Assembly (NCBI GenBank): GCA_965649265.1
Contig: CBFGKC010000007.1
Span: 32,001-96,000, forward strand
Origin: a candidate division WOR-3 bacterium
GTDB taxonomy: Bacteria; Hydrothermota; Tepidihabitantia; B3-TA06
Length of the DNA: 64,000 nt
Direction of reading: 5' to 3'
This document shows, piece after piece, positions 24,243-63,848 of this stretch. Position 1 is the stretch's first letter. The number at the start of each line of letters is the position of its first letter. The translations under genes were made by a program, and so were the position numbers. The notes beneath the pieces were generated by a model. That model was not told the DNA's origin. It did not search any database and was given only the letters and a program-made list of their open reading frames with translations.

Positions 24243-24685
24243 TCCCCCTCCCTAGTGGAGGGGGAAGGGGGCGGGGAGCAAGTTAGCGACCAAGGGGTCG
24301 CATTGGTCGAACTCACGTTCGACAGATAGCTGCAGAATCTGAGGGAGCGCCCCCCGGGGGGCCAACAAGCTCTCAGCAATTTTGTTAGAGATCTCTTTTG
24401 CCCCGCCTCCCTTATGAAGGGAGGTGACCGGAGGTCGGAGGGATCTTCGATTTCTGATCCCCCTCCCCCATCGAGGGGGAGGAATCCCTCACCTCTAACT
24501 CCTCTCCCGAAGGGCGAGGAGAACTATATACCCTCCTCCGCTCCGGGATGAGGATGTGTTACGGGACCTCTCCCATCGGGAGAGGGTGACGATCTAGAAG
24601 ATCGTCGGGTGAGGGCAGCGGGGTCCCCAAGCGGGCGCTTTGCGATCGCCTGGAGTGGTCTCTGAGGGTGGCTGAGGAGGGCTTT
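24243..24685. repeat. Cluster of GC-rich palindromes (CCCTCTCCC..GGGAGAGGG type and others)
   Basis: CCCCTCC..GGAGGGG, CCTCCCTT..AAGGGAGG, CCTCCCCC..GGGGGAGG, CCTCTCCC-ATC-GGGAGAGG, plus a GGGGTCCCC copy at 24620. Confidence 0.75.
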
Positions 24686-24730
24686 ATCTTGACTTTTAGC
24701 GAGAGATGAATATAGTTAAGAATGTCAATC

Positions 24731-24806
24731 GGGCGATTAGCTCAGCTTTGGTTAGAGTACTTGCTTGACATGCAAGGGGTCAAAGGTTCGAATCCTTTAT
24801 CGCCCA
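24731..24806 (+). tRNA. tRNA-Val(GAC), CCA not encoded
   Basis: GGGCGATTAGCTCAG..CTTGC-TTGACAT-GCAAG..GGTTCGAATCC..ATCGCCCA; TTGACT/TATAGT promoter upstream. Confidence 0.95.
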
Positions 24807-24830
24807 TTATGAGAAAACGGGGAAGGCTAA

Positions 24831-25532
24831 GTGCCTGAAGAAAAGCGACTCCTGAAGCAGCTACAATCTTCGGATACAAAATTACACGAATTACAAACCC
24901 AGCACGACGCAATTCCAAAAAAAATCAAAGCCCTTGAAGCGGAGATCGAAGCGCTCCGTCACGGAATTGAGGAGTTGAAGGCCTCGCGCATAACCGCGCA
25001 AAAGGAGCTCAAAACGGCTGAGCTAAACCTGGGCACGCAGGAGGAGGCGGTGGGCAAGTACAACTCCCAGCTCTTCAGCGCAAGGACGAACGAGGAGTAC
25101 AAGGCCTTTCTCAAGGAAATCGAGACCGCGGAGAAGAACAAGAAGGCGTTTGAGGACAAGATAATCGAGTGGATGGAGACCATCGAGCGCATTGACAAGG
25201 AGATTGTCGCGAAAGAGGCCGAACTCAAGAGCGAGGAGGCCGTCAAGCGTATCGAGATTGAGTCGGAAAAGGCGAAAGGGGCAGGGCTCGAGCAGGAGAT
25301 AAAAGAGGAGAAGGAAAAGAGGGGGAATTTCCGCAAAGCGGTTCCTGCGAACATCCTGGCCATATACGACCGGATTCAAAAGAACAAGGGCGTGCTTGCC
25401 GCCGCGCTCATACTCGAGGGCAACCGGTGCTCAGGCTGCTTCAACCTTGTGCCCGCCCAGAAGGCAATAGAGGCCGAGCACTCGAGCGAACTCTCCTTCT
25501 GCGAATACTGCGGCAGAATCCTTATTAAATAA
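24831..25532 (+). CDS. Coiled-coil, C4 zinc-ribbon protein (DUF164/CT398-like)
   Basis: Long coiled coil, CSGC..CEYCGRIL. Confidence 0.9.
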   Translation: MPEEKRLLKQLQSSDTKLHELQTQHDAIPKKIKALEAEIEALRHGIEELKASRITAQKELKTAELNLGTQEEAVGKYNSQLFSARTNEEYKAFLKEIETAEKNKKAFEDKIIEWMETIERIDKEIVAKEAELKSEEAVKRIEIESEKAKGAGLEQEIKEEKEKRGNFRKAVPANILAIYDRIQKNKGVLAAALILEGNRCSGCFNLVPAQKAIEAEHSSELSFCEYCGRILIK

Positions 25533-25567
25533 CCACCGATGATCTGCGGGAACGCGGAGAACAAAAA

Positions 25568-25996
25568 GTGACGGTTCAAAAGAAAATTTTTCCTGACGAC
25601 GCTGACACTGCCCAGGCCTGGATAGACGGCGCCTCCAGCGGTAACCCCGGCCCTGCGGGCGCGGGCGGGATCATCAAGAGGGAAGGAAAGGTCGTGGGAA
25701 GCTTCAGCGTGTTTCTTGGCGAGCAAACCAACAACTTTGCCGAATACTCTGCGCTCATACTCGTTCTCGAAAAGGCGGAAGAGCTCGGAATCCGTTCTCT
25801 GGAGGTGCGCACGGACTCGGAGCTTCTCTTCAGGCAGATGACCGGCCGCTACAAGGTTCGCAACCCGGGGATACTCGAATTGTACGAGAAGGCGATTTCG
25901 ATAAAGAGGAAATTCAAAATGGTGCGCATACTGCACGTTCCGCGCGAGGAGAACAAGGAAGCCGACAAGCTCGCGCGCGCCGCTCGCGGAGGATGA
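25568..25996 (+). CDS. rnhA: Ribonuclease HI family
   Basis: DGASSGNPG, TNNFAEY, TDSEL, REENKEAD. Confidence 0.9.
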   Translation: MTVQKKIFPDDADTAQAWIDGASSGNPGPAGAGGIIKREGKVVGSFSVFLGEQTNNFAEYSALILVLEKAEELGIRSLEVRTDSELLFRQMTGRYKVRNPGILELYEKAISIKRKFKMVRILHVPREENKEADKLARAARGG

Positions 25997-25999
25997 GAG

Positions 26000-26860: not shown

Positions 26861-26878
26861 TTGAGTATGCTAACGCCG

Positions 26879-39636: not shown

Positions 39637-41055
39637 TTATTTCAGGATAGTTCTCGCTGAAGCGAAGGAATTGCCCGAGACAAGACGGAAGAAGTACACG
39701 CCGCTCGTGGCACGCTCACCGGAATCGGTGGTGCCGTTCCAGGAAACCTGGAACTCGCCCGCGGCGCTCGTTCCCGATACAAGGGTTTTTACGAGCGAAC
39801 CCGAGGCATCGTAGATCCGCAAGGATACTGCGCCCGATACGGGGACAAAGTAGCTGACTGTCGCGTTGGTTGAAAGGATGGGCTCAACAGTAAGGAAGGA
39901 AAGAGGTGTTACGGGGGAGGGCGAGGAGGGTGAGGAGGGTTCTTCAACGCCGGCATAAAGAGCTTCATTGCTCCTCGCGTGGTAGATCTCGGAATCGCCG
40001 TCCGAATTGTTGTAGAAGACTATGTGTCCGATACCTGATGCGTCGCAGGTAAAGAAACGTCCCAGCATTACATAATCATCGAAGCCGTTGTCGGTCACGC
40101 GGCCTGTGCCCCATATGCCTGCGGCATTCGTGGCGTAGAATATCTCCGCGTCACCCGGCTCCACGGCCAGATATGCGATGTGCACCTTGCCCGAAGGATC
40201 GACATAAATAGTCGGGTTGACGTTATGATAAGAGGTACTCGTAACCTTGCTTTCCTGCCAGGTCCCAGTCACGTCATTGGCGTAGTATATCTGGTTAAAA
40301 CTGCCGTCGCTCTTGGCAAAGGTCACATGGGCCTTGTCGTTTCCATCCAGGACGATGAAGGGATAAGAATTCGCGCCAGTGGAACCCGCAACAGGCACAG
40401 GTGAAGTCCATATGCCGGCCGTTTTGTACGTGTAATGAATATGCGAACCGTTTCTGTACACTATACGCGGGTTGCCTGTCTTGTCGAGTGCAAACCAGGG
40501 AAAGACATCGTCGGAGGCGTTATCCGTGACCTGCTCCGATATCCATGAACCTGAGACGTTGTTGGCGTAGAATATTTCCACGTCGCCACCGATATTTTTT
40601 TGATACACTACGTGCGCAAAACCGCTTTGGTCGAGCGCGATAACCGGCCGGTCGTCATCGTTAGCGTCATCTGTGATGCGGGTGGTGGTCCAGGTAGTGC
40701 CGCTGCCGTAACAGTAAGAAACCTCGTTATCCGGGACGTCTTCCCAGTAGTGGGCTAAATAGGCCGTCTGTTCGTTGTACTTGACTGCAATGTCATAACC
40801 CACATCGCCATATGTGTTATCCGTAACCCTGTTAGAGGTCCAAGGACCCGAAAAGTTGTTGGCTACGAATATCTCACGATCAGGGTCAGAGTTGCAATAT
40901 ACCACCAGCAGACCCGATTGTACCGCGGCTATGAAAGGATAGTCATCCATCTCAGTGTTATCCGTGACCTTGTCTATGGTCCACGTTGCACCAATGGACG
41001 GCGTAGCAAGACCGATCATTAACGCAAGAACCGCTACTACGACGTACTTGCTCAT
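39637..41055 (-). CDS. Secreted 7-repeat beta-propeller + FlgD-Ig/T9SS-like CTD, paralog 1
   Basis: Signal peptide, seven W..VTDN..P..LD..H..EI.YA repeats, YDASGSLVKTL..WNG..SGVYF. Confidence 0.88.
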   Translation of the reverse strand: MSKYVVVAVLALMIGLATPSIGATWTIDKVTDNTEMDDYPFIAAVQSGLLVVYCNSDPDREIFVANNFSGPWTSNRVTDNTYGDVGYDIAVKYNEQTAYLAHYWEDVPDNEVSYCYGSGTTWTTTRITDDANDDDRPVIALDQSGFAHVVYQKNIGGDVEIFYANNVSGSWISEQVTDNASDDVFPWFALDKTGNPRIVYRNGSHIHYTYKTAGIWTSPVPVAGSTGANSYPFIVLDGNDKAHVTFAKSDGSFNQIYYANDVTGTWQESKVTSTSYHNVNPTIYVDPSGKVHIAYLAVEPGDAEIFYATNAAGIWGTGRVTDNGFDDYVMLGRFFTCDASGIGHIVFYNNSDGDSEIYHARSNEALYAGVEEPSSPSSPSPVTPLSFLTVEPILSTNATVSYFVPVSGAVSLRIYDASGSLVKTLVSGTSAAGEFQVSWNGTTDSGERATSGVYFFRLVSGNSFASARTILK

Positions 41056-41175
41056 TTGTCGCTCCTTTTTTGGATTAACCATACTTGTTTTGTTTGCTTT
41101 GAAATCCTGCAACTTAGCTGCACTAACTATAAGGTCATTTTACTTGTTGTCAAGAATTCTTATTACTATTAACTT

Positions 41176-41203
41176 TAAAAGGGGGCATCACATGGATGCC
41201 CCC
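41176..41203 (-). terminator. Terminator between paralogs 2 and 1
   Basis: GGGGGCATC..GATGCCCCC with a T-run on the minus strand. Confidence 0.7.
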
Positions 41204-41223
41204 GAAGGAAATGCGTCCGAATC

Positions 41224-42669
41224 CTATCTAAGGATTGTCTTTGCCGACACGACACCGGCAGGCGTTACGAGACGGATAAAGTACACTCCGTTCGTGACCT
41301 TTGAGCCTGAATCTGCAAAACCATTCCAGGCGATGCTGTAGCAGCCTGAGCTGAGAGTTCCATCAACAAGAGTTTTTACGAGCGAACCCGAGGCATCGTA
41401 GACCCGCAGGGATACTGCGCCAGATGAAGGGATTGAGTAGCTGACGATCGAGTTGGAGAAAAGGACCGATTCGACTGTTATTGAAGGGGAGGAGAGGGGT
41501 GTTACGGGGGAGGGCGAGGAGGGCGAGGGGGGCGAGGGGGGCTCTTCGACGCCGGCAAAGAGGTGTTCGTTGCTGTATGCGTGGTAAATCTCGTTGTCAC
41601 CGTCCGAGCTGTTCCAGAAAAAGATATGGCCGACACCCGAAGCATCGCAAACGAAGTAACGCCCCATCACCCCGCCGTCATTGTAACCGTTATCGGTCAC
41701 TCGGCCGGTACTCCATATGCCTGCAACGTTGTTCGCGTAGAACATCTCCAAATCGCCCGGTTCCGCGGCAACATAGGCGATATGAGCTTTGGCCGAAGGA
41801 TCAACCCAGATGGTCGGAAAGCCATTGTCATAGCTCGAGGTCGTCACCTTGCTCTCCTGCCAGGTACCCGTCACATCGTTGGCGTAGTATATCTGATTGT
41901 GGACCCCGTCGCTCTTTGCATACGTGACATGCGCCTTATCGTTTCCATCCAGGACGATGAAAGGGAATGAATTCGCGTTAAACCCGCCCGCCACCGGCAC
42001 CGGGGTAGTCCAGATGCCGGCCGTCTTGTAGGTGAAAAAAAGCTGTATGCCGTTGGGTCCATCGTTCACGTAGACTACCCTGGGGTTGCCTTGTTTGTCC
42101 AGCGCAAACCATGGTACTACATCATTAGTGTTGTTGTCCGTGACCTGTTCGGATACCCATGAACCCGTGACGTTGTTGGCGTAGAATATCTCCCAGTCTG
42201 CGCCTATCAATTTCTGATAGATCACATGCACGAACCCTGAATTATCCAGCGCTATGGAGGGCCATGCATCGTCGGCAGCGTCATCGGTGATGCGGGAGAT
42301 GTTCCAGCTTGAACCCGAACCGGTGCAATAGGATATCTCCTGATCGGGTGCGTCCACCCACCAGACCGGGATATGGGCTGTTTGTTCGTTATATCTTGCC
42401 GCGATATCGAAACCCAGATCACTATAAGTATTATCGGTAACCCTGTTTGAGGTCCACGTACCCGAAAAGTTGTTGGCTACAAAGACTTCGTTGTCGGCAT
42501 CGTAAAGTGTATATACCACGATCAGACTCGACTGGACCGCGGCCACAAAGGGATTAACATCCGATTCCGTATTGTCTGTGACTTTTTCAATTGTCCATGT
42601 GACCGCAAGCGATGGGTAAGCCAGGCCGGAAATCAGGAATATGGCGCTTACTAAGAGGCACTTACGCAT
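41224..42669 (-). CDS. Secreted beta-propeller + CTD, paralog 2
   Basis: Same architecture; start MRKCLL after AAAGGAG. Confidence 0.88.
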   Translation of the reverse strand: MRKCLLVSAIFLISGLAYPSLAVTWTIEKVTDNTESDVNPFVAAVQSSLIVVYTLYDADNEVFVANNFSGTWTSNRVTDNTYSDLGFDIAARYNEQTAHIPVWWVDAPDQEISYCTGSGSSWNISRITDDAADDAWPSIALDNSGFVHVIYQKLIGADWEIFYANNVTGSWVSEQVTDNNTNDVVPWFALDKQGNPRVVYVNDGPNGIQLFFTYKTAGIWTTPVPVAGGFNANSFPFIVLDGNDKAHVTYAKSDGVHNQIYYANDVTGTWQESKVTTSSYDNGFPTIWVDPSAKAHIAYVAAEPGDLEMFYANNVAGIWSTGRVTDNGYNDGGVMGRYFVCDASGVGHIFFWNSSDGDNEIYHAYSNEHLFAGVEEPPSPPSPSSPSPVTPLSSPSITVESVLFSNSIVSYSIPSSGAVSLRVYDASGSLVKTLVDGTLSSGCYSIAWNGFADSGSKVTNGVYFIRLVTPAGVVSAKTILR

Positions 42670-42695
42670 GTTACTTCTCCTTTTTGTATTCAGGC

Positions 42696-44096: not shown

Positions 44097-44142
44097 ATTA
44101 CTACTCCTTTTTAGAGTTTGTTCTCATAGTTTCATATCGAAA

Positions 44143-44175
44143 CTGAAGAGGGAATCAAGGGATTCCCTCTTCAGT
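44143..44175. terminator. Hairpin between paralogs 4 and 3
   Basis: ACTGAAGAGGGAATC-AAGG-GATTCCCTCTTCAGT. Confidence 0.7.
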
Positions 44176-44188
44176 CAAAATCATTGCC

Positions 44189-45589
44189 TTAATTCAAAAT
44201 CGCTTTTGCTGATATGGCCGCCGATTTCGTCTCCAGACGGAAGAAATACACGCCGCTGGTGGCGCGTGCGCCTGCATCGGTCAGACCGTTCCAGCTTGCA
44301 CTGAACTCGCCCGGAGCGCTGTTACCGGAAACCAGGGTCTTGACAAGCGAACCTGCCGCGTCGTAGATACGCAGGGAGACGTTGCCTGCTTCAGGAACGG
44401 TGTAGCTGACAGCGGCAGCACCGGCAAGAATGGGTGCGACGGTAATTGAGGCGGGAGCAGAGGTGGTTTTGAACTCCTCAACGCCGGCATAGAGGGGTTC
44501 ATTGCTTTTCGCGTGGTAGATCTCGTTGTCGCCGTCGGAGTTGTTCCAGAAAAACACGTGTCCGATACGATTGGCGTCGCAGGTAAAGTAGCGGCCCAAA
44601 ATCCCGCCGTCGTTGAAACCGTTATCTGTTACACGGCCTGTGCTCCATATCCCTGCGGCATTAGTGGCATAAAACATTTCCCAGTCACCAGGTTCGACGG
44701 CAACATAGGCAATATGCGCCTTGGCCGAAGGATCCACAAAGATGGTCGGGAAAAGGTTGTCATAGGATGTGGTCGTGACCTTGCTTTCCTGCCAGGTTCC
44801 GGTCACGTTGTTGGCGTAATAAACCTGATTGAAGCTTCCATCGCTCCTGGCATAGGTGATATGGGCTTTGTCGTTGTTGTCGAGAACGATGAACGGCAGT
44901 GAGTTGACTCCTCCCCCGATCGTGATAGGCTCGGGCTCGGACCATACGCCTGCGCTCTTCTTTGTATAACCTATGGTTGTACCTCTTACTAAGACTATGT
45001 GAGGATTACCAGTTTTATCGAGAGCAAACCAGGGAGCAACATCATCCACTCCATTATCGGTAACCTGTTCGACCAACCAGGAACCTGAAACGTTGTTGGC
45101 GTAGAATATCTCCCAGTCGCCGCCGATATTTTTCTGAAAAACAACATGCACGAATCCGTTATTATCAAGAGCAATAGAAGGCCAAGCATCATTGTCTGCG
45201 TCGTCGGTGATTCGCGAGACGTTCCAGGAGGTCCCTGAACCCTTGCAATAGGATATCTCCTGATCGGGTACGTCCTGCCACCAGATAGGGATTTGGGCCG
45301 TCTGTTCGTTGTACTTTGCGGCTATGTCGAGGCCGATATCGGAATAAGTATTATCGGTAACCCTGTTGGATACCCATGAACCGGAGAAGTTGTTGGCGAC
45401 AAAAACCTCATTGTCCGCATCGTTGTGGGTATAGACCACCATCAGACCCGATTGCACGGCGGCTACAAACGGATTTATATCCGACTCCGTATTGTCGGTC
45501 ACCTTCTCTACAGTCCACGTTGCCGCGATTGACGGCTGTACGAATGCCGCCATCACGAGCGTTATTATTATCACTGCATACTTACGCAT
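44189..45589 (-). CDS. Secreted beta-propeller + CTD, paralog 4
   Basis: Same architecture, 466 aa. Confidence 0.88.
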   Translation of the reverse strand: MRKYAVIIITLVMAAFVQPSIAATWTVEKVTDNTESDINPFVAAVQSGLMVVYTHNDADNEVFVANNFSGSWVSNRVTDNTYSDIGLDIAAKYNEQTAQIPIWWQDVPDQEISYCKGSGTSWNVSRITDDADNDAWPSIALDNNGFVHVVFQKNIGGDWEIFYANNVSGSWLVEQVTDNGVDDVAPWFALDKTGNPHIVLVRGTTIGYTKKSAGVWSEPEPITIGGGVNSLPFIVLDNNDKAHITYARSDGSFNQVYYANNVTGTWQESKVTTTSYDNLFPTIFVDPSAKAHIAYVAVEPGDWEMFYATNAAGIWSTGRVTDNGFNDGGILGRYFTCDANRIGHVFFWNNSDGDNEIYHAKSNEPLYAGVEEFKTTSAPASITVAPILAGAAAVSYTVPEAGNVSLRIYDAAGSLVKTLVSGNSAPGEFSASWNGLTDAGARATSGVYFFRLETKSAAISAKAILN

Positions 45590-45610
45590 GTTCCTGCTCC
45601 TTTTTGGGTT

Positions 45611-47011
45611 TTACTTCAATATTGTCTTTGCGGACACAGTGGTCGTGCCCGTTGTAAGGCTCATGAAATAGACTCCTCCGGCAGCTTTGCAGCCTGCATC
45701 GGTCATGCCGTCCCAGTTCACGTAAAACTCGCCCGCACTGCAAATCCCGCTGACAAGAGTCCTTACGAGCGAACCTGAAGCGTCGTATACCTTGAGGGAT
45801 AAGTTTGCGGAAACCGGAACGGTGTAAGAAACGATCGAGTTGCCGGAGACGATAGGCGCAACTTTGATAGAAGGGGTGAAGGTGGAGGACGCAAACTCCT
45901 CGACTCCTGCATACAACGGTTCGTTGCTGTAGGCATGGTATACTTCCGCATCGCCGTCCGATGCATTAATGAAAACCATGTGACCTGTACCCTGAGCGTC
46001 ACTTACAAAGTAACGACCCAACCTGACAGCGTCGTCCGTACCGTTGTCGGTAACGCGGCCCGTCGTCCAGATACCTGCGGCATTCGTTGCGTAGAACATC
46101 TCTAAATCACCCGGCTCCGAGGCTTCATAGGCAATATGGGCTTTTGAATAAGGATCCACAAAGATGGTCGGAAAGGCGTTATCGTAGCTCGTGTTCGTTA
46201 CCTTGCTCTCCTGCCAGGAACCTGTAACGTTGTTGGCGTAGTATACCTGGATGAAACTTCCGTCGCTTTTTGCGAATGCGACGTGAGCGTTATCGTCCTT
46301 ATCAAGAACAACGAACGGAAATGTGCTAATACCCATTCCGGAGGCCACAGGCTCGGGCGACATCCAGATGCCTGCCGACTTCCTGGTATAAAAAAGCCCC
46401 GTGCCGCTTAAGTAGACAATATGAGGATTGCCGGCCTTATCGAGCGCAAACCAGGGAAGAAGGTCGTTCACAGCGTTATCGGTAACCTGCTCGGATATCC
46501 ACGAACCGGTCACGTTGTTGGCGTAGAAAATCTCACCGTCGCCGCCGATATTTTTCTGGTATACCATGTGCACGTGTCCGGAATTGTCGAGCGCGATAAC
46601 TGGTCTTTGGTCATCGTTGCCGTCGTCGGTTACTCTCTCCGTACTCCAGCTCGTCGATGAACCCTTGTAATAGGATATCTCGTCATCAGGTGTATCATGC
46701 CAGTAAACGGCTATATGCGCCGTCTGCTCGTTGTACTTCGCGGCTATATCGTATCCGAAATCGTCGCGCGTATTGTCCGTAACCCTGTTAGAGGTCCACG
46801 AACCCGAAAAGTTGTTGGCAACAAAAACCTCATCATCCGGGTCGCGATTGGTATACGCAATCAAGAGTCCCGACTGAACAGAGGCAATGAATGGATAGAC
46901 GTCTATCTCAGTGTTATCGGTAACTTTTTCAATAGTCCATGTAGCACTTGTCATGGGGACAACAAATATGACCGAAAGTATGAAAGCGGAAAGCACCACG
47001 TGCTTGTTCAT
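45611..47011 (-). CDS. Secreted beta-propeller + CTD, paralog 5
   Basis: Same architecture, 466 aa; AGGAGG SD. Confidence 0.88.
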   Translation of the reverse strand: MNKHVVLSAFILSVIFVVPMTSATWTIEKVTDNTEIDVYPFIASVQSGLLIAYTNRDPDDEVFVANNFSGSWTSNRVTDNTRDDFGYDIAAKYNEQTAHIAVYWHDTPDDEISYYKGSSTSWSTERVTDDGNDDQRPVIALDNSGHVHMVYQKNIGGDGEIFYANNVTGSWISEQVTDNAVNDLLPWFALDKAGNPHIVYLSGTGLFYTRKSAGIWMSPEPVASGMGISTFPFVVLDKDDNAHVAFAKSDGSFIQVYYANNVTGSWQESKVTNTSYDNAFPTIFVDPYSKAHIAYEASEPGDLEMFYATNAAGIWTTGRVTDNGTDDAVRLGRYFVSDAQGTGHMVFINASDGDAEVYHAYSNEPLYAGVEEFASSTFTPSIKVAPIVSGNSIVSYTVPVSANLSLKVYDASGSLVRTLVSGICSAGEFYVNWDGMTDAGCKAAGGVYFMSLTTGTTTVSAKTILK

Positions 47012-47233: not shown

Positions 47234-48016
47234 TTATCTGAGGTGATTCAGAATGGGCATCCCCTCTCCGGCGTATACGATATCGGCGAGTTTGCGATCG
47301 ATATAGGCCTCGGCGGAGGCGACGGCATCAACAAGTGACGATCCTCTGGCTAGATAGGCTGTGATTGCCGCGGAAAGAGCGCATCCCGAGCCGTGGACGT
47401 TCTTGAAGCCACGTCTGGGTTTCACGAACCTGCGAGCGTCCGTCTTGGTAAGGAAGAGGTCGACAACCTGATCTTCCATAAGGTGACCGCCCTTGATAAG
47501 AACCCCTTTTGCGCCCATTTCCATGAGCTTGCGGGCAGCCCCCTCAAACATACTGCTCTGTGTAATCGAGGAGCCTGTGAGCGCCTGAAGCTCGGGGACG
47601 TTCGGGGTAATTATCGCGGAGGACGGAATGATCTGGGTTTTGTAAAATTCGATGTCCTGCGAATCCGCGAGCAGGAAACCGGTGCCCGAGGCGAATATGG
47701 GATCGACCACCACTGGAAAGGATACGCGATTGAGGAAAAGGGCGACCTGGCTCAGGCACTCTTTTGTCAGAAGCCCCGTCTTTGCGGCCTGAGGGCTTCT
47801 GTCTTCGAGGAGGCAGCTTATCTGTTCGGCAACAAGCACGCCGTCAAGATTGAACGAACGTCGCATGCCGAAGGTGGACTGAACCGTAATAGCGGTAACG
47901 CATGAAAAACCGTGCACTCCGAGTTCCGTGAAGACCTTCAGATCCTCCTGGATGCCGGCACCGCCCGAGGGGTCCGAGCCGGCGATAGTGAGAGCGATTG
48001 GAACCTTAGCGTTCAT
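47234..48016 (-). CDS. thiD: Hydroxymethylpyrimidine/phosphomethylpyrimidine kinase
   Basis: LTIAGSDPSGGAGIQ, VVDP, TPNVPE, KGGH, HGSGC. Confidence 0.93.
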   Translation of the reverse strand: MNAKVPIALTIAGSDPSGGAGIQEDLKVFTELGVHGFSCVTAITVQSTFGMRRSFNLDGVLVAEQISCLLEDRSPQAAKTGLLTKECLSQVALFLNRVSFPVVVDPIFASGTGFLLADSQDIEFYKTQIIPSSAIITPNVPELQALTGSSITQSSMFEGAARKLMEMGAKGVLIKGGHLMEDQVVDLFLTKTDARRFVKPRRGFKNVHGSGCALSAAITAYLARGSSLVDAVASAEAYIDRKLADIVYAGEGMPILNHLR

Positions 48017-49853
48017 CGATCGGAATGTATCCTTTCTGCTTGCCTTTGTTGAAGGCAAACCCCGGATTATGTTTATGGCAAGCCAGACATCTCCTGGCTT
48101 CGTCGGTATCGTCACCCTTTTTCAAACCGCACAGCGTTTCTTTTGAGAGTTCTAGCTTCTTGTAGGAGGTTTGCTCCTGAATTCTCGCTTTAAAGGCCGG
48201 ATTCTTTACCGTCCATGCGGCGCCGGGCAACTTCTCGATTTCGGACTCGGGATCGAACTCTCCGAGACGTTCAAAGAAAGACCCCAGGAACCTGGGTCGA
48301 AGGAAGTAGTCTATGGATCGGGCGGCGGCGAGACCGTCACCTGAAGCTTCGACGACGGTGGAGGGTCCGCGAACCGCATCCCCGCCTGCAAAAATCCTGC
48401 GCCTCTTGATTCTCTGATGACGGTTGATTTCCAGTCTACCGTCTACATCGACGGGAAGGTCGAGCCTGTTAAGGAACTCGATATCCGGCTCCTGACCGAC
48501 GGCGACGATGACGGCCTTGACCTCCTCATCCCACTCATCGCCCGGGGACGCAACGAGTGCTGAGCCTCTTCCCTTTTCACGATCGCTCAAGGTCATGTGG
48601 GTAAACCTGATCTTCTGGACGTGCTTCTTGCCGGAGAACTTGAGAGGGGCTGCAAGGAAATGAAACTTGATACCTTCCTTCTCGGCCTCCTCTATTTCCA
48701 ATTTGTAGGCGGGCATGTTCGCCCGCATGCGGCGGTAGAAGACAGTCACTTTTTCCGCACCCATTCTTAATGCGACTCTTGCAGAATCGACGGCGGTATT
48801 CCCTCCCCCAAGGACGGCAACGTGTCCGGACAAGGATTTGACCTTGCCCACGCACACGTTTCTGAGAAATGTGAGACCGGGGATCACGCCCTCAAGGTCC
48901 TCTCCCTCTATGAAAAGTGGCCTTGGTTTTGAAGCGCCCAGGGCCAGGTAAACGGCGCCGTAGGAGCGCTCGAGTTCGTCTAGTGAGATGTCCTTGCCGA
49001 GCGTCCTGTTCGTGAGGATAGTGATCGAGGGGTTCGAGGAAAGGATGTAGTCAATATCGGACTGAACAACCTCACCCGGAAGCCTGAAACACGGGATGAT
49101 ATCGCGGAGGATTCCGCCGGGCTTTGGTTCCGCTTCGAAGATATCGACCTTGTAACCACGTTGAGCGAGGAAGTGCGCGCAGGAGAGTCCTGACGGTCCC
49201 GCGCCGACAACGGCAACCTTCCGTTTAGAATTAATGGTGGAGTGGTCCGAAGGAGAATTCTTTTCGGAAGGGGGAGGGGAAGGGAGCTTGTGTGTTACGG
49301 GTGTTACGGGGGAGGAGGGTTGTGTTACGGGTGTTACGGGGGAGGCGGCGCGCTTGAGGGCGCGGATTGCGATTGGTTCCTCGATGCGGGTGCGCGTACA
49401 GACTTCCTCGCAGGGCGCAGGGCATATGCGTCCGAGTACGCCGGCAAGCGGCGCTCGGGAACGGATGAGTTCGAGAGCATCCCCGTGGCGACCGGCGGCA
49501 ACAAGAGCAACGTAACCGGGAACGTTAATTCCTGCAGGGCACGCGGTCTTGCAAGGCGCTTCCTCGAGTCTTGGCCCGCGATAGGCGTCGTAAGCGGTAA
49601 GTATGTAGTAGAAAGCAAAGGTCACCGACCAGACTGGCCACAAGAGCCAGCCCAGATCGGGCCTGAGGCCGTTCATGACAACGGCGAAGGCGACGAATGA
49701 TGCATCAAGCACCAGCGCGGCTATGGCCATGCCTATCCTTCCTCTTACAAAATGACCTATCCCCGGGACTACGAGGGAGACAATGAGTGCCGCCAGTCTT
49801 TTTTTACGTTCCAGTTTGATTTTTTCCCCTAAAAGATTGCCATCAGAACCCAT
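48006..49853 (-). CDS. GltD/SudA-like Fe-S flavoprotein with an N-terminal membrane domain
   Basis: PC..ACPAG, GRICPAPCEEVC, VGAGPSGL, GGGNTAVD, AGGD; N-terminal PGIGH..DAY hydrophobic region. Confidence 0.85.
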   Translation of the reverse strand: MGSDGNLLGEKIKLERKKRLAALIVSLVVPGIGHFVRGRIGMAIAALVLDASFVAFAVVMNGLRPDLGWLLWPVWSVTFAFYYILTAYDAYRGPRLEEAPCKTACPAGINVPGYVALVAAGRHGDALELIRSRAPLAGVLGRICPAPCEEVCTRTRIEEPIAIRALKRAASPVTPVTQPSSPVTPVTHKLPSPPPSEKNSPSDHSTINSKRKVAVVGAGPSGLSCAHFLAQRGYKVDIFEAEPKPGGILRDIIPCFRLPGEVVQSDIDYILSSNPSITILTNRTLGKDISLDELERSYGAVYLALGASKPRPLFIEGEDLEGVIPGLTFLRNVCVGKVKSLSGHVAVLGGGNTAVDSARVALRMGAEKVTVFYRRMRANMPAYKLEIEEAEKEGIKFHFLAAPLKFSGKKHVQKIRFTHMTLSDREKGRGSALVASPGDEWDEEVKAVIVAVGQEPDIEFLNRLDLPVDVDGRLEINRHQRIKRRRIFAGGDAVRGPSTVVEASGDGLAAARSIDYFLRPRFLGSFFERLGEFDPESEIEKLPGAAWTVKNPAFKARIQEQTSYKKLELSKETLCGLKKGDDTDEARRCLACHKHNPGFAFNKGKQKGYIPIDER

Positions 49854-53616: not shown

Positions 53617-54972
53617 TTACCTTATCAATACAATCTTGGCTGTTTGTGATTTTGAGCCATTTGTTTTTATAAAGTATACTCCTTCAGGAAAACGTGCACC
53701 CCATTCTATCTGACCGGAAGATGAAGATGTTACAATTTCGTCCACCCTCCTCCCCCCTGCGTCGTAGACTGAGGCTGAAAATCCGTCAGGGCAGTTGGAG
53801 TAGTAAATGACAATCTCCGAACCGATTGAAGAGGCTATCTCTATTTCTGAGGAGGGCTGGTGTGTTGCGGGGGACGAGGAAGACGGCTCGGAGACGCCGA
53901 GCGTGTCGCAGTTGGAGTCGGTTTTAAAAAGCCAAACGTCACGATCTTTTTCTCCTACAACGATGTAGCCGCCGTCTTTTGTCTGAAGAACATCCTTGCC
54001 ATAGCATGTGTATTTTCCTAAATACTTTTTTGTCCAGACCGTATCAAGGCTGTCGTTATCGACACTTTTTACGATCGCCCAGGGGTCCCCGGTAGAGATG
54101 TAACCCCCATCACTCGTAAGGTTAATACGGTACGACCAACCTCCATTCTTAGTTTGCTTGAAATACCCCTGTTCTCCGAATCCAATGCTTCCTTTCGAAA
54201 TCCAGAAAACTGGTCCTTCAAAAACGTCAGGCCATGTGCCTGCCATAACGTAAGAACCCTTGTCTTGGGCTTGCTCTATCCATTGCACATTCCAGGCGGA
54301 TTCGTGTTTCCATTCAAAAATCTCACCAGCTAGCTCCGCGAATAGCATCACATTGTTGTTGCTTACAACTAAGTATAAGGAATCCCTGGTGGCATTTGCA
54401 CAGGAATATGCACCATCATGCTCCTTTACCCACTCAATTTTACCTTTCTCGTCAATTTTGAGAAAGACTATCTTGTTACTGTCCGGGTAGTTAATACCGC
54501 CAATGGCAACATATCCGGAATCAAAAAAGGCCGAACCGACATATCCAGAGGTTTCGTTTACTCCGTCGGTATAGTATAAAGTCGTCCAGAGTGTATCACC
54601 AAGAGAATCGGTCTTAAGAAGCCAGATGCCGAAATAATAAGAAACGAAGGATTTGCTTTCAGCTGCAATTATCCAGCCTCCATCTTCAGTTGGCCCCATC
54701 CAGGAGACGATCTCGGATTTTTCTCGCCCGTAGGTTTTTGTCCACAGGGTATCGCCAAGGGAATCAATTCTCAGGAGCCAGATATCGGTACTCCCATTTC
54801 CGAAAGACGATGTAATGGCTGCGACCACATAGCCGCCATCATTGGTTTCTAATATGCGGAAACCCGCATCTGGATGCTCCCCCCCATACGTACGTGACCA
54901 ACCTGCTTCTGCTTTTGCGGGGTTTAAAGCGATTACGGCGAACCCTAGAAAGAACACAAAGCGTTTCATCAC
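53617..54972 (-). CDS. Secreted repeat (propeller-like) protein with T9SS-like CTD
   Basis: Signal peptide, DGGY..G..WLLKTDS.GDTLW repeats, YDAGGR..GVYF..KIVLIR tail. Confidence 0.82.
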   Translation of the reverse strand: MMKRFVFFLGFAVIALNPAKAEAGWSRTYGGEHPDAGFRILETNDGGYVVAAITSSFGNGSTDIWLLRIDSLGDTLWTKTYGREKSEIVSWMGPTEDGGWIIAAESKSFVSYYFGIWLLKTDSLGDTLWTTLYYTDGVNETSGYVGSAFFDSGYVAIGGINYPDSNKIVFLKIDEKGKIEWVKEHDGAYSCANATRDSLYLVVSNNNVMLFAELAGEIFEWKHESAWNVQWIEQAQDKGSYVMAGTWPDVFEGPVFWISKGSIGFGEQGYFKQTKNGGWSYRINLTSDGGYISTGDPWAIVKSVDNDSLDTVWTKKYLGKYTCYGKDVLQTKDGGYIVVGEKDRDVWLFKTDSNCDTLGVSEPSSSSPATHQPSSEIEIASSIGSEIVIYYSNCPDGFSASVYDAGGRRVDEIVTSSSSGQIEWGARFPEGVYFIKTNGSKSQTAKIVLIR

Positions 54973-58618: not shown

Positions 58619-58656
58619 GGGGTCCCCGAACGAATGCGAAGCAGTCGTTTGGGGTG
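58619..58656 (+). repeat. GGGGTCCCC..TGGGGT hairpin repeat copy
   Basis: CCCCG-AACGA-AT-GC-GAA-GC-AG-TCGTT-TGGGG. Confidence 0.78.
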
Positions 58657-58658
58657 AA

Positions 58659-58742: not shown

Positions 58743-58912
58743 CCCCCGGGATCCCCACATGCATGTGAGGCAGACGTATGCGGAAAATACACTCGCCTTT
58801 GTACCTTGCAACCCGCTCATTAGGCTGCACCGGGACCAAATCAAACAAGAAAGTCAATCTAAGGAGCACGTTTGCGGCTTGACATATTGAAAGTTCAAGC
58901 TAAACTCAAGAC

Positions 58913-59830: not shown

Positions 59831-60772
59831 ATGAAGAAAAAATTCATAGAAGACCTCCATCCCGGCGACGACGTGGAGGAGGTCTTCTACGTTCTCGAGA
59901 GGGAGACAAGACGAACCAGGGAAGGCAAGGATTTCGTCGTCTTCCAACTGGCTGACAGATCAGGTTCAATAAAGGCGCTCTTTTTTGAACCCGGCTCAAA
60001 GATGATGCCTCCCAAAGGAACCTACGTAAGGGTCCGGGCAAGGCTTACGGAGTACAACGGCAAGTTGAATTTGAAGATCGACGACCTCTGGCCGGAGAAG
60101 GAGACTAACGTCGACTATTCAGACTTTCTTCCCAAATCATCGAGAGACATTGAAGCCTGCTATAAAAAACTCCAGGACGCCGTGAAAGGACTGAAGGAAC
60201 CTCTTCGGGCGCTGCTTTCCGCACTATACGATAACGCGGCGTTCGCCCGTCAGTACAAGCTTGCGCCTGCAGGTGTAAGAGCCCATCACGCATACATCGG
60301 TGGATTGTGCGTACATACCCACGACATGCTTGCGCTTGCAGAGCTTGTAACGACCAACGACCCTGATGTGGATGCTGATCTCGTCATCGCAGGAGTGCTC
60401 CTTCACGATATAGGAAAAATCAGTGAATACGAATATTCAAAAAGCATCGACAACACGGACGAGGGAAAACTGCTCGGCCACATTGCGATAGGCATCCGGA
60501 TGCTCGAGCGAGAAATTGAAAAAATTCCCGACTTCCCTGAGAAACTCGCATGGAAGCTCCTGCACATAATACTTAGCCACCACGGTCTCAGGGAATATGG
60601 CTCGCCGAAGCCGCCCATGTTCGTCGAAGCGCAAATAGTGCACCAGATAGACAATCTCGACTCCAAGAGGGCCATGTACCGGGAGATCGCCGAAAAGCAC
60701 GATGAAGGCGACTGGAGCGAATACCATCCCTATCTGGAACACGACATCTACCTCGACCGCTCCGGCGAGTGA
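59831..60772 (+). CDS. yhaM: 3'-5' exoribonuclease YhaM family (OB + HD)
   Basis: L.DRSG, APA..HHAYIGGL, LLHDIGK, GHI, SHHG..EYGSP. Confidence 0.9.
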   Translation: MKKKFIEDLHPGDDVEEVFYVLERETRRTREGKDFVVFQLADRSGSIKALFFEPGSKMMPPKGTYVRVRARLTEYNGKLNLKIDDLWPEKETNVDYSDFLPKSSRDIEACYKKLQDAVKGLKEPLRALLSALYDNAAFARQYKLAPAGVRAHHAYIGGLCVHTHDMLALAELVTTNDPDVDADLVIAGVLLHDIGKISEYEYSKSIDNTDEGKLLGHIAIGIRMLEREIEKIPDFPEKLAWKLLHIILSHHGLREYGSPKPPMFVEAQIVHQIDNLDSKRAMYREIAEKHDEGDWSEYHPYLEHDIYLDRSGE

Positions 60773-61413
60773 ATGCCCGGCTCGTTGAATTTTTTAAATG
60801 CAGAGGTATAGACCTCACCGTTGAACAGACCAGGCTTCTGGATGAATATAAGCGTTTGCTTATAGAGTCTTCCGCGAGAACCAATCTCCTCTCATCGGGT
60901 GATCTGGAAAAAATCGAAGAAACCCATTTTGCAGATTCGATTGCCGCAGAATCCTTCATTCCCCACGGCGCACGAGTAGCGGACTGGGGTTCGGGGGCAG
61001 GCCTGCCGGGGATACCGCTCGCGATTACGAAACCCGATATCCACATGACACTAGTGGAATCGAGGCAGGCAAAAGCCGGATTCCTCTTGAAAGCGATAAA
61101 GGAACTCGGACTCGTAAACACGCGGGTCTTTCCCGCTGACGGCGCGACACTCAAGGAGCGTTTCGATATCGTGACCGTCAGGGCAGTAGGAACTATAAAA
61201 AAAATTCTCCCTATTCTTCTAAAAAAACTTGCAGAAGGAGGAGGGTTACTTCTCTATAAAGGACCTGGTCTGGATAAGGAAATAAAAGAAGCTTCTGCGA
61301 TTATTGAACGTTCAGGATTGAGAACACGGATCGAGGAAGTCACGCTGCCATCCGGCAGAACAAGCCGCCACCTCCTCCTCTCCCCCCGTAACACCCCCGT
61401 AACACACCCGTAA
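60769..61413 (+). CDS. rsmG: 16S rRNA m7G527 methyltransferase RsmG
   Basis: NL, HFADS, DWGSGAGLPGIPL, RAV, KG. Confidence 0.92.
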   Translation: MNARLVEFFKCRGIDLTVEQTRLLDEYKRLLIESSARTNLLSSGDLEKIEETHFADSIAAESFIPHGARVADWGSGAGLPGIPLAITKPDIHMTLVESRQAKAGFLLKAIKELGLVNTRVFPADGATLKERFDIVTVRAVGTIKKILPILLKKLAEGGGLLLYKGPGLDKEIKEASAIIERSGLRTRIEEVTLPSGRTSRHLLLSPRNTPVTHP

Positions 61414-61534
61414 CACACCGCCGTAACACACCGCCCACACCTCCATCAATGACACGCCATCAGTACATTCCTCAAGGGGTCCCCGAAAAGGTACGAAGTA
61501 ACTTTTTGGGGTAAATTAGTAACACACCACCTCC
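61385..61534 (+). repeat. ~150-bp composite repeat, copy A
   Basis: 4x CCGTAACAC, unique linker, GGGGTCCCC hairpin; near-identical to 63701-63848. Confidence 0.9.
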
Positions 61535-61838
61535 CTCATTAATTGTGGATGGAAAGATGTTATCAGGAATGTCTCGGTGTGAGACCGGTGTCAAGGTGTT
61601 GCTGAGGAGGGCCCGTAACACACACATCTGCAACCAAGAGATTTTCTCAGTATGTGAAAATGACACCGAGAAGTCTCTGCTAGGTCTCTGAGGGGGCTCT
61701 GAGGGGGGCTCTGAGGAGGGCTCCGTAACACACCATACCTCCCCCCGCCGATTGTAATTTGAATTGGACTTTTCAAATTTCTCGTTTCGCGAAATCGAAA
61801 CATTGGAGACCTCCAGGGAACGAAATACCTTTTATGGT

Positions 61839-61866
61839 AAAAAAAAGGCCGGGGTATCCCGGCCTT
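61839..61866 (-). terminator. Terminator after the PASTA gene
   Basis: AAGGCCGGG..CCCGGCCTT with an A-run on the plus strand. Confidence 0.75.
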
Positions 61867-61886
61867 AATTATCTTTTCTTATGGTC

Positions 61887-62576
61887 TTAGTCGAGAACGC
61901 TCGCGATGTAAACGGTAACTGCCGAACCCTTGGGAACAATGCTGCCCTCTTTGGGGGTCTGGTAGTACAGTGTGCCCTCGTAGTATTCGGTGCTGACGCG
62001 GTAGACGAATTTCGCCTCAAGCCCGGCCTCTTTTATCTTGGCCTCGGCATTCGCTTTGCTCATGCCTGTAACCCTGGGAACCTCGACGGTCTTCACGGGT
62101 TCCGAACCCATGCTTACCTGCACCTTGACGTAGGTGTCTTTGTCAACTTTGGTTCCGGGTGCGGGATCAACTGAGATGACCAGGTCCTTGGCCACCGCAT
62201 CGGAATACACGAACTCCACATTGGAATAAAGCCCTAACTCAGCCAGCTTACGGAGCACGTCGTTGAGGTTCGCATTATCCATGCGTGGAATCTCAACCTT
62301 ATCGGGACCGGTCGAGATCCAAACCTTAACGGTTGAACCGCGCTTGACGTCGGAGAGAGCAAGAGGGTCCTGCTTGCAGATGAGTCCTTCACTTACATCG
62401 TTGGAAGGTATCTTATCCACTACATAGATCAAAAGATTCCTCTTCTCAAGAGACATCTTTGCATTCTCAATCGTCGATTTTGTTAGGTCGGGAATTTCTA
62501 CGTTCCCGATGCATCCTGTTAAGGCAACAGTGAAAACGCCCAGCGCAACAGCCAGAACGATCGCACTCTTCTTCAT
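61887..62576 (-). CDS. PASTA-domain lipoprotein (3 PASTA repeats)
   Basis: Lipobox LTGC, IPDL..QDP..G..V.V..S.G repeats. Confidence 0.88.
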   Translation of the reverse strand: MKKSAIVLAVALGVFTVALTGCIGNVEIPDLTKSTIENAKMSLEKRNLLIYVVDKIPSNDVSEGLICKQDPLALSDVKRGSTVKVWISTGPDKVEIPRMDNANLNDVLRKLAELGLYSNVEFVYSDAVAKDLVISVDPAPGTKVDKDTYVKVQVSMGSEPVKTVEVPRVTGMSKANAEAKIKEAGLEAKFVYRVSTEYYEGTLYYQTPKEGSIVPKGSAVTVYIASVLD

Positions 62577-62745
62577 AAGGTTCCTCCTTTACCTAAGCGG
62601 ATTTTTTCCTTATGTTGTAAATTTTACTCAGTTAATGCTTTAATGTCAAGGGGTTACTTTACCGCAGACTCTTTTTTTCATAATTAATAGAAAACAATAG
62701 AAAGAATCTGCATCTGGAAAAAGTCAGATTGAATTTGGCCTGCTT

Positions 62746-63666
62746 TCAGATGTAGCGAAGCATCTCGTCGAGAGCGTGTTTCGCCTTTGAGGCGATTTCA
62801 GGAGAAACCTCGACCACGTATTGATTCTTTTCGAGGGATGCGAGTACGTGCTCGAGTCTTATCTTCTTCATGTTCTCGCACACCTTTGGCGCGCCCAACG
62901 AGTAGAACTCCTTTTGAGGATTCTCCTTCTTGAGCCGGTAGATTAGACCCTCCTCGGTACCTACTATGAAGCGCTTACGATCGGACACTTTGGCGAGTTT
63001 TACCATGCCGTTCGTGGAGCAAACCTCGTCGGCAAGGTCGACTATTTCAGGATCAATCTCTGGATGGACCATGAGAAGTGCGTCCGGATACCGCTCGCGA
63101 GAAGCTTTTACCTCCTCAACCCTGAATCTGCGGTGAACGGGACAGAACCCTGCCCATGCAATGATGTGTTTTTTGGTATGCCGCTGGACCCATGAAGCGA
63201 GATTGCAGTCGGGTACGAAGATAATCTCATCGGCATCTACTCCCTCCACCACCTTGAGTGCGTTGGAGGACGTGCAGCAGACGTCCACCTCTGCCTTGAC
63301 GTCGGCGTTCGTATTCACGTAGGCGATGACCTTTGCCTTCGGATGTTCTTGTTTGAGCTTACGTAGACCTTCGACGTCAACCATATCGGCCATCGGACAG
63401 CCCGCATCGGGCCGTGGATGAAGAACCGTCTTGGAAGGTGCGAGTATCTTCGCCGTTTCGGCCATGAAACGCACCCCGCAGAAAACGATTACGGATGCAT
63501 CGGTCTCGGCCGACTTACGAGCGAGGTCGAGCGAATCACCCAGAATATCTGCAATCTCCTGAATCTCGGAAAGCTGGTAGTTGTGCACGAGAATGATGGC
63601 GCCCTTCCCCTTTGCAAGCCGCCTGATCTGGGCACTGATCTCTTGAGCGTTCTTTTCGGTAGTCAT
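62746..63666 (-). CDS. nadA: Quinolinate synthase
   Basis: HNYQ, GDSL, FCGV.FMAETAK, GCPMA, YVNT, CPVH, HPE, CENM. Confidence 0.96.
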   Translation of the reverse strand: MTTEKNAQEISAQIRRLAKGKGAIILVHNYQLSEIQEIADILGDSLDLARKSAETDASVIVFCGVRFMAETAKILAPSKTVLHPRPDAGCPMADMVDVEGLRKLKQEHPKAKVIAYVNTNADVKAEVDVCCTSSNALKVVEGVDADEIIFVPDCNLASWVQRHTKKHIIAWAGFCPVHRRFRVEEVKASRERYPDALLMVHPEIDPEIVDLADEVCSTNGMVKLAKVSDRKRFIVGTEEGLIYRLKKENPQKEFYSLGAPKVCENMKKIRLEHVLASLEKNQYVVEVSPEIASKAKHALDEMLRYI

Positions 63667-63700
63667 GACGTAATCATAAAGCCCACAGCATAAGTGTCAA

Positions 63701-63848
63701 CCCGTAACACACCCCGTAACACACCCGTAACACACCCGTAACACACCGCCCACACCTCCATCAATGACACGCCATAAGTACCTTCTTCAAGGGTCCCCGA
63801 AAAGGTACGAAGTAGCTTTTTGGGGTAAATTAGTAACACACCACCTCC
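63701..63848 (+). repeat. ~150-bp composite repeat, copy B
   Basis: Direct repeat of 61385-61534. Confidence 0.9.

Follow-up and report, generated by a model that had tools for sequence, protein, structure and literature searches.

We have identified a very short repeat, built on the 9-mer CCGTAACAC (abbreviated T), in a 64,000-nt stretch of a candidate division WOR-3 genome (GenBank assembly GCA_965649265.1, contig CBFGKC010000007.1, positions 32,001 to 96,000 of the forward strand; hereafter the window). T occurs singly, in head-to-tail strings, and at the boundaries of longer hairpin-bearing units. When close relatives are compared at orthologous sites, the strings are seen to have gained, lost or swapped whole units, here called beads. 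Strings also arise anew, both in intergenic DNA and inside open reading frames (ORFs), where they are seen only if the reading frame is kept and the frame that reads a TAA stop is avoided. On balance, we think it somewhat probable that T is the smallest unit of a mosaic repeat that is non-autonomous and specific to this lineage, with slippage and selection also acting on it.

Abundance, anatomy and distribution of the repeat

Seventeen exact copies of T were found in the window, seven on the minus strand (24556-49339) and ten on the plus strand (61386-63744), where 0.37 would be expected; none of 100 shuffled sequences reached this number. An exact pattern search recovered every copy listed in an earlier reading of this DNA, which had been made from the letters alone (the sequence-only reading). 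When one mismatch was allowed, 25 matches were obtained against 9.2 expected, among them the variant CCGCAACAC at 53862..53870 on the minus strand, inside ORF 53617-54972. T contains no palindrome, and several of its copies in the window adjoin C-rich modules of the GCCCTCCTC / CTGAGGAGGG type, both as had been described. The irregular tandem character reported for the runs was likewise found, although their spacings (9, 11, 12 and 13 nt) extend the proposed period of 10-13 nt to 9-13 nt.

The 2.74-Mb assembly to which the window belongs (27 contigs, 96% complete) carries 387 copies of T on 25 of its contigs, compared with a naive expectation of ~21. The genome-wide k-mer count that had been proposed as a check therefore bears out the enrichment: T is the most frequent 9-mer of the genome, its extensions are the top 11-mers and 14-mers, and its one-mismatch variants have at most 50 copies each. 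The 387 copies fall into 208 clusters, of which 116 are singletons and 92 are strings of two to seven units. Of the 179 spacings within these strings, 53 are exactly 9 nt and most others are 10-14 nt, while the periods as a whole vary from 7 to 16 nt. The base before a unit is almost always C, and ACC often stands behind it. In a census of 248 units, 199 were full length and ~27 were cleanly truncated at the 3' end, leaving CCGT, CCGTAC, CCGTAAC or CCGTAACA. Where at least four units follow one another at a 9-nt period (e.g. G000:C11:91779-91814, the labels giving genome and contig), the G-rich strand presents GGG every 9 nt with 6-nt gaps, a potential G-quadruplex pattern, for which arrays of the GGGGGG type would be stronger candidates.

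All beads start with CCGTA and end in ACAC, T being the empty unit. The S bead (17 strict copies) is 52-54 nt long, starts with CCGTA or CCGTC and ends in TAACAC; its interior consists of a CCCC-tetraloop-GGGG stem of 4-5 bp with a 4-nt loop, followed by a second, weak stem. The L bead (five strict copies) measures ~95 nt and has an additional hairpin inserted. Both are usually flanked by T, S stands directly behind S at places, and the beads of a string are laid out head to tail on one strand. Other modules of 50-110 nt, unrelated to these, are bounded by T in the same manner. They include a unit of ~90-110 nt with a tail of the CTGAGGAGGGC type, GC-rich hairpins followed by T, and a 106-nt module that occurs twice in the window; in one spacer, five different modules are set apart by five single T. 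In one pair of orthologous L beads (G003:C4:182948-183076 and G006:C67:34407-34533), the inner stems differ and are both perfectly paired between nearly identical flanks, which looks like re-templating of a palindrome rather than point mutation. Searches against Rfam returned two tRNAs alone at gathering thresholds in the window, with no family for the repeat modules, and no match up to E = 1 at eight repeat-rich loci of the genome.

For counts across genomes we used the 11-mer extension ACCCGTAACAC. It is present at 25-203 copies per genome throughout the family (11/11 genomes, from four genera), and at 0-3 copies in 20 genomes from nine other families of the class; the control, the reversed 11-mer, gave 0-4 copies. 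T is therefore a feature of this lineage, whose proteins are 50-85% identical across the four genera. Two adjacent T units were found at no fewer than 73 loci when one genome per species was considered. Among the matches listed, 37 are titled Candidatus Stahlbacteria, four are titled 'uncultured bacterium', and the remainder consists of scattered single matches; homologues of the window's proteins bear the names candidate division TA06 or WOR-3. The possibility of an assembly artefact, raised in the sequence-only reading, can be set aside because T is found in all 11 family genomes, in separate records of metagenome-assembled genomes and in contigs from a public sequencing run. A literature search, with supplementary files outside its scope, yielded among the matches listed no description of the CCGTAACAC repeat and none of repeats in TA06 or WOR-3.

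Turnover between genomes and insertion into genes

Two close relatives, G003 and G006, were compared over ~138 kb of syntenic DNA at 86-98% identity (mostly 92-97%). The comparison rests on 16 orthologous T loci with an anchor on either side; for 30/41 and 24/40 clusters the partial sequence offered no two-sided anchor, and these were left out. Four loci are identical, one differs by two substitutions, and 11 differ in the number, type or presence of units. Three of the 11 are changes by one unit (2 versus 3 units of 12 nt, 3 versus 2 units, and 1 versus 2 units), one has an extra variant unit, and another is a 91-nt duplication that carries T. Beads are exchanged or added at three more (T,T versus T,S,T; T versus S,S,T,T; and an array common to both genomes, only one of which has two S in it), and the remaining three are cases of presence versus absence. 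Signs of slippage are also seen: runs of the same variant unit, higher-order duplications, and truncated units that differ by deletions of 2-3 nt.

Comparisons reaching into genes gave the same picture of filled and empty sites. A 36-nt T string present in G006 and absent from G003 lies in a TPR-like ORF, whose product it extends by GVTDVTGVTGVT, read in the antisense frame. At the same residue of a conserved protein, the genome studied here has a partial unit followed by T,T, and a member of another genus has T,T,T,S,T,T. A 905-aa ORF holds one S and two T, making exactly 72 nt that are lacking in 3/3 relatives. Altogether, 12 T-bearing ORFs could be aligned with a relative: six have extra residues at T, one has more units, one is occupied in both genomes, two show no change of length, and two have T in diverged linkers.

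The clearest insertion in the window lies in a GltD-like oxidoreductase (ORF 48006-49853, minus strand), at 49266..49343 (bounds approximate, from residue numbers). It is found in only one of 21 aligned proteins, being absent from 20/20 database homologues. It is also absent from 5/5 orthologues in the family, whose open frames are 595-600 aa long compared with 615 here; in the DNA alignment it comprises ~66 nt between the conserved residues KRAA and EKN. The insert, 22-26 residues long, is a 30-nt higher-order duplication, each copy of which contains two T at 9-nt spacing plus C-rich filler (T starts at 49292, 49301, 49322 and 49331), and it encodes the peptide SPVTPVTQPSSPVTPVTHKLPSPPPS. The four T are located between the Fer4_20 domain (residues 90-170) and the Pyr_redox_2 domain (from residue 212), in agreement with the interdomain loop to which they had been assigned. 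The comparison of filled with empty orthologous sites, which the sequence-only reading had suggested, thus shows change at 11/16 loci between G003 and G006 and an insert shared by 0/5 orthologues of the GltD-like gene.

That reading would have given way had the encoded SPVTP peptide been conserved with synonymous variation. We instead found that, of 66 PVT[P/H/Q] peptides in ORFs of at least 250 aa, 47 are encoded by the exact bases of CCGTAACAC, even though both GTA and ACA are minor codons, which together would be expected in 3.7% of such peptides. Since the nine bases rather than the peptide are preserved, the repeat acts at the level of DNA. The claim of a DNA-level process accordingly stands on these codons, on the lineage-specific GltD-like insert and on the turnover between genomes.

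Frame and strand tell where strings are kept. Of the 387 copies of T, 189 lie outside the long ORFs that stand in for genes. The 83 sense copies read PVT (57) or RNT (26), and none (0/83) falls in the frame CCG-TAA. The spacing from one T to the next is divisible by three in 34/38 cases within ORFs of at least 250 aa, a proportion that falls to 32/78 in intergenic DNA and to 18/49 in short or boundary ORFs. The absent TAA frame and the kept spacings bear out the suggestion that copies survive only where they are tolerated. A further claim, that T is on the sense strand in genes, is true of the window and fails genome-wide: internal clusters in ORFs of at least 150 aa number 39 sense and 23 antisense, and there are true antisense in-frame arrays reading GVTGVTG. 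The antisense-frame copies in ORFs amount to 115, many of them in short, probably spurious ORFs.

Gene ends are affected as well. A four-T array on the plus strand at 61386..61429 (starts 61386, 61397, 61408 and 61421; periods 11, 11 and 13) replaces the end of RsmG (ORF 60769-61413), so that T covers the last codons, as had been noted, and the TAA of the third T is the stop codon. RsmG is one of 11 ORFs, among 2005 of at least 150 aa, whose stop codon is the TAA within an exact unit. Behind this array, at 61430..61535 (+), is the first of two copies in the genome of a hairpin-bearing module, which has a T-like end, TAGTAACAC. It is followed by two single T (starts 61613 and 61723; 61613..61731, +) around a module of ~100 nt with a 12-nt minisatellite of the GCTCTGAGGGGG type at its end. 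In a relative's contig from a public DNA run (X1), position 61516 is joined to 61840 through five other letters; the 323-nt module block 61517-61839, including the T at 61613 and 61723, is missing.

The second copy of the hairpin-bearing module (63745..63850, +), 88-98% identical to the first, adjoins another four-T array at 63702..63744 (+; starts 63702, 63714, 63725 and 63736; periods 12, 11 and 11). This array abuts the -35-like TTGACA of a leaderless-looking promoter of a NadA-like gene (ORF 62746-63666, minus strand), and the string upstream of this gene has four units here, one in a genome of the same genus and none in three others. The promoter-like boxes themselves (window 63660-63705, minus strand) consist of TTGACA, 16-17 nt, and TATnnT only ~5-7 nt before the ATG. 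Similar boxes are seen in locus L032 around 1440-1500 and in L007 at 2640-2730, a layout that hints at transcription without a leader, for the NadA-like gene as for others in the lineage.

Two copies on the minus strand are in frame, reading SPVTP, in linkers of secreted propeller paralogs: one at 39906..39914 in paralog 1 (ORF 39637-41112), ahead of its FlgD_ig domain, and one at 41499..41507 in paralog 2 (ORF 41224-42801). An alignment agrees with the claim that paralogs 3-5 are without T, as they have a gap at the linker site where the first two carry SPVTPLS. The five paralogs are arranged in tandem (39637-47011, minus strand), are 466-525 aa long by ORF proxy and 67-70% identical to the first, and combine a repetitive VTDN-rich body with a C-terminal FlgD_ig domain. 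They are part of a larger secreted family, the linkers of which hold many of the genic T copies. The last copy to be placed is a single T at 24556..24564 (minus strand), in the spacer between ORF 22643-24379 (minus strand) and tRNA-Val 24731-24806; it stands directly 3' of a GC-rich hairpin module.

Other short repeats surround T. A companion micro-repeat, GCCCTCCTCAG / CTGAGGAGGGC, with periods of 9-12 nt, occurs in the window at 61696-61721, 24657-24682 and 39915-39939, and its complement contains a Shine-Dalgarno-like GGAGG. With 126 copies of GCCCTCCTCAG here and 1-16 in the other ten family genomes, it is a species-level expansion. Arrays of the AAAAGTGGGAC / AAAAGATGGAC type, with an 11-nt period, account for ~45 tandem loci found genome-wide with TRF (e.g. 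L007 420-450 and L017 2600-2700); their A-tracts are phased at about one helical turn and possibly bend the DNA. A 300-nt tandem duplication at window positions 8216-8785 (two copies, 75% identical) is unrelated to T.

Candidate enzymes and rival explanations

Under the reading that we prefer, of T as the smallest bead of a mosaic repeat, strings would grow and shrink locally by slipped-strand mispairing or by unequal recombination between beads. Slippage alone leaves three facts unexplained, namely the exact 10-13-nt copies at new sites, the identity of T across four genera, and the hairpin beads that carry both halves of T. For this reason we infer a trans-acting, sequence-specific activity at the bead junction, which would seed new sites and maintain the exact 9-11-mer across the genera. 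This activity might be that of a recombinase or of a single-strand nuclease or transposase, and strings of T would be its landing pads for hairpin beads. Linkers rich in Pro/Val/Thr or Gly/Val/Thr, new stop codons and remodelled promoter-proximal DNA would be side effects on genes. A bolder version, in which T is the attachment core of a family-conserved recombinase or single-strand nuclease and this candidate enzyme adds, removes and exchanges beads chromosome-wide, ORFs included, is conceivable, and we regard it as doubtful.

Among the candidates considered for such an enzyme are two RAYT-like (REP-associated tyrosine transposase) Y1_Tnp genes of this genome, 183 and 184 aa long, both on the minus strand: ORF 1339-1890 of locus L007 (G000:C2:115158-118484) and ORF 1330-1884 of locus L008 (G000:C5:113743-117066). 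Each stands beside its own family of repetitive extragenic palindromes (REPs), one a GTAG-tagged GC hairpin and the other a cluster of GCAACAAC-type hairpins, and the first of these pairings is seen again in G003, G006 and G009. Y1_Tnp genes are also common in sister families that have no T. The other REPs alongside them, their relatives in T-less families, and the lack of a match in one T-bearing genome, given below, all speak against the RAYTs as the enzyme for T. A search of the own genome for Cas12f1-like_TNB gave one sub-threshold match and no usable candidate. An autonomous partner was sought as S-type ends lying 0.2-4 kb apart; the few pairs obtained look like neighbouring S beads around ordinary genes (the pair on C8 was checked).

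Several observations weigh against the reading that we prefer. No enzyme could be tied to the repeat. The RAYT-like genes are flanked by REPs other than T, and no Y1_Tnp was found in G004 despite its 46 copies of ACCCGTAACAC. Searches of the own assembly (96% complete) for the domains DDE_3, IS110 DEDD and DDE_Tnp_1 were negative; insertion sequences are commonly lost in assembly. Only four genes have T on both sides, none of them transposase-like, and neither a target-site duplication nor a terminal inverted repeat could be defined. The orientation of T has no link to GC skew at 20 kb (p = 0.21) or at 50 kb, and so speaks against a single-strand insertion coupled to replication, as in IS200/IS605. 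The hairpins offer scant covariation, with one covarying pair in two subfamilies of 17 and 8 sequences, and these vary too little to support structure past the GC tetraloop stem. Two of the 12 genic T copies compared with a relative show no change of length; as ~21 chance copies are expected, these are put down to substitution or chance. Finally, gene positions were taken from greedy long-ORF proxies, covering 88.8% of the genome, in place of gene calls.

An alternative that we consider unlikely, yet the strongest of the rivals, is that T is a functional recognition word, either an uptake sequence of the DUS/USS type (DNA uptake sequence/uptake signal sequence) or an iteron-like binding site, with strings and hairpin beads as secondary features. 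Much of the abundance data would suit it: T is the top 9-mer with a sharp drop to its one-mismatch variants, more than half of its clusters (116/208) are singletons, its strands are near balance (95 versus 108), and it is exact in 11/11 family genomes and not outside, unlike the companion GCCCTCCTCAG. So would the two genic copies without a change of length and the single orthologous locus that differs by substitutions only. A ComEC 'Competence' domain occurs in 11/11 family genomes; it is also present in 10/14 control genomes and is thus only permissive for uptake. Arrays have a one-sided orientation beside -35-like boxes, as TGTCAA is found within 25 nt on the 5' side of 12/208 clusters and TTGACA of none, compared with one each on the other side, but the orthologous promoters work without the array. 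Relative to the direction of transcription, T is oriented the same way in 42 cases and the opposite way in 27, and S in 10 and 6, neither of which is decisive. A recognition word would also recall an unrelated phage group in which CCGTAACAC forms inverted iterons beside a replication gene. Against it, the density of 208 clusters in 2.74 Mb is low, seven of the 12 genic cases are insertions or unit expansions and one further site is occupied in both genomes, and described uptake sequences form neither head-to-tail strings nor beads sharing halves of the motif.

Slightly less credible again is that T is an ordinary minisatellite without dedicated machinery in a lineage prone to repeats of 9-12 nt; slippage would make its strings, and homologous recombination or gene conversion from string to string, possibly involving imported DNA, would spread them and keep them uniform. 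Such a proneness is evident, for TRF at a permissive score detected 994 tandem loci, 640 of them with periods of 9-12 nt and belonging to several unrelated unit families. The variable periods of T (7 to 16 nt), its truncated units and higher-order duplications, and the one-unit differences between close genomes at several loci are all of the kind a minisatellite would give. What this explanation does not account for is the appearance of exact 10-13-nt copies at new, unrelated sites, both as singletons and as the 36- and 72-nt inserts. Nor does it account for the identity of T alone across four genera while another unit expanded in one species, or for hairpin beads that always come with both halves of T.

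The sequence-only reading had itself put forward templated addition, in which a reverse transcriptase (RT), a telomerase-like enzyme or a primase-polymerase would copy units from a short template such as an RNA bearing GUGUUACGG. We now consider this very improbable. Irregular strings and units that break off at the 3' end before a restart (~27/248) are what it would produce, but these are a minority that small slippage deletions explain, and full-length units dominate (199/248). Hairpin beads and modules stand in place of units, and a short template cannot yield them. The search that had been recommended for such an enzyme gave no candidate gene: there is no match to RVT_1 in the own genome, and none to Prim-Pol in any of the 11 family genomes. 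Break-repair patching, the other route named in that reading, is conceivable. We give next to no credence to the remaining proposal, that the copies in genes were selected as a linker peptide of the PVTP type and multiplied with the paralogs, the intergenic copies being unrelated; many copies do sit in linkers of one secreted FlgD_ig multi-gene family, but the codon test (47/66 with the exact bases and no synonymous variation) refutes it, and T also occurs in single-copy housekeeping genes (GltD-like, RsmG and an E2-like linker), in the antisense frame, and at the 189 positions outside ORFs.

The phage occurrence can be described separately. In 11 of 30 viral contigs with the 18-mer, direct and inverted runs of CCGTAACAC lie downstream of a replication gene combining Prim-Pol and AAA_25 (L176 3040-3165, and the same region in L165, L171, L173, L175, L177, L181, L184, L186, L189 and L190). 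The contigs are 4-14 kb long, have a GC content of 0.54-0.59 and carry a small terminase gene nearby, and the runs look like an iteron origin. As the 11 family genomes contain no match to the Prim-Pol/AAA_25 protein, the occurrence of one word in both is possibly a coincidence, and no link to the repeat is shown.

Comparison with known systems and consequences for the lineage

The statement in the sequence-only reading that no described system behaves in this way was too strong, as three kinds of repeat share parts of the behavior; it stands insofar as none of them matches T fully. By analogy, T would belong among the mosaic interspersed repeats, where neisserial intergenic mosaic elements (NIMEs), bacterial interspersed mosaic elements (BIMEs) with their REPs, and Rickettsia palindromic elements (RPEs) are each partly alike. 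It is set apart from NIME, RPE and REP in being 9 nt long and non-palindromic, in forming tandem strings alone, in being interchangeable with hairpin units and in being commonly in frame.

The NIME array is the closest in architecture. In the account of PMC1797815, NIMEs consist of dRS3 repeats flanking RS elements and are specific to Neisseria, and dRS3 is a 20-bp inverted repeat proposed as the site of a specific recombinase. As with T, a short, lineage-restricted repeat punctuates many unrelated modules of 50-150 bp, and arrays are syntenic with a repeat number that varies between genomes (PMC1797815); in our data, too, T flanks diverse modules in syntenic arrays of variable number. The dRS3 repeat is inverted and its arrays are described as intergenic (PMC1797815), whereas T is a non-palindromic direct repeat also found in frame in ORFs. 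Strings with nothing between units further distinguish T, and in the own genome neither a phage recombinase nor one of the IS110 type was detected.

RPEs are the closest in behavior within genes, as they are inserted in frame into unrelated genes and translated as an extra peptide (PMC10969869). The inserts of the GltD-like gene, the 905-aa ORF and the TPR-like ORF, absent from orthologues, are of this sort, and so are the beads in an E2-type linker. In the description given there, RPEs are ~150 bp long, palindromic and without tandem strings (PMC10969869), in contrast to T, whose commonest unit is 9 nt and variable in number.

REPs are described as an unpaired GTAG or CGTC tag beside a palindrome of 20-40 bp; for the CGTC family, stems of 8-9 bp and no known dedicated transposase are reported in the same source (PMC3733652). 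Like REPs and BIMEs, the S bead is abundant, places an unpaired tag beside a GC-rich hairpin, is mostly extragenic and forms mosaics (PMC3733652, PMC3116915, PMC3337134). Its CGTA or CGTC precedes the stem as in tagged REPs, and its stem of 4-5 bp compares with 8-9 bp in REPs. An assignment to REPs or to REPIN-RAYT systems was rejected on three grounds: T is no palindrome and the S stem is too short; the RAYTs of the own genome, G003, G006 and G009 stand beside other REPs; and the beads are head to tail instead of in inverted pairs. A miniature inverted-repeat transposable element (MITE) of the IS630/Tc1 type was also rejected, as the ends of S have no inverted repeat and DDE_3 was not found in the own genome; the TA on either side of the S body (CCG-TA...TA-ACAC) is compatible with a MITE and is not diagnostic. 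Palindrome-associated elements derived from IS200/IS605 would have subterminal hairpins, a fixed short word 5' of the insertion, a bias with replication direction and a Y1 TnpA. The beads end in ACAC and follow C, mostly AC, and Y1 genes are present; against such a derivation, orientation has no link to GC skew and the hairpins abut the bead ends.

T resembles DUS and USS as a top over-represented 9-12-mer, family-wide, on both strands and in coding DNA where tolerated (PMC2817400, PMC2346458). It is unlike them in its far lower density, tandem strings, insertion behavior and link to hairpin beads, and dispersal as single copies by point mutation was rejected: 92/208 clusters are multi-copy, and the genic cases comprise six insertions among 12, one expansion and one site occupied in both genomes. 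Variable number tandem repeats (VNTRs) or minisatellites and the short tandemly repeated repetitive (STRR) sequences of cyanobacteria consist of short head-to-tail units that change in copy number and adopt in-frame periods in genes. T likewise has head-to-tail units whose number changes between close genomes, and it departs from VNTRs and STRRs in that one exact unit is present at more than 200 loci and conserved across four genera.

If T is indeed the unit of a mosaic repeat, one exact word of 9-11 letters has been kept at hundreds of sites over long evolutionary time, while the modular strings built from it change between genomes only ~5% apart. These strings would lengthen housekeeping enzymes by flexible segments, provide genes with stop codons and border on promoters. 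In practice, they interrupt assemblies and make ORF calls too long or too short, and they might be used as strain markers for the lineage. The family would offer a natural system for studying how selfish or semi-domesticated micro-repeats generate linker variation, how an enzyme recognizes so short a site, and how widely mosaic arrays are used. Should T prove to be the attachment core of a dedicated enzyme, this would be the second lineage known to have NIME-like punctuated arrays and the first in which they work in frame, and it would possess a micro-transposition system by which protein linkers, the ends of genes and the DNA near promoters are continually rewritten.

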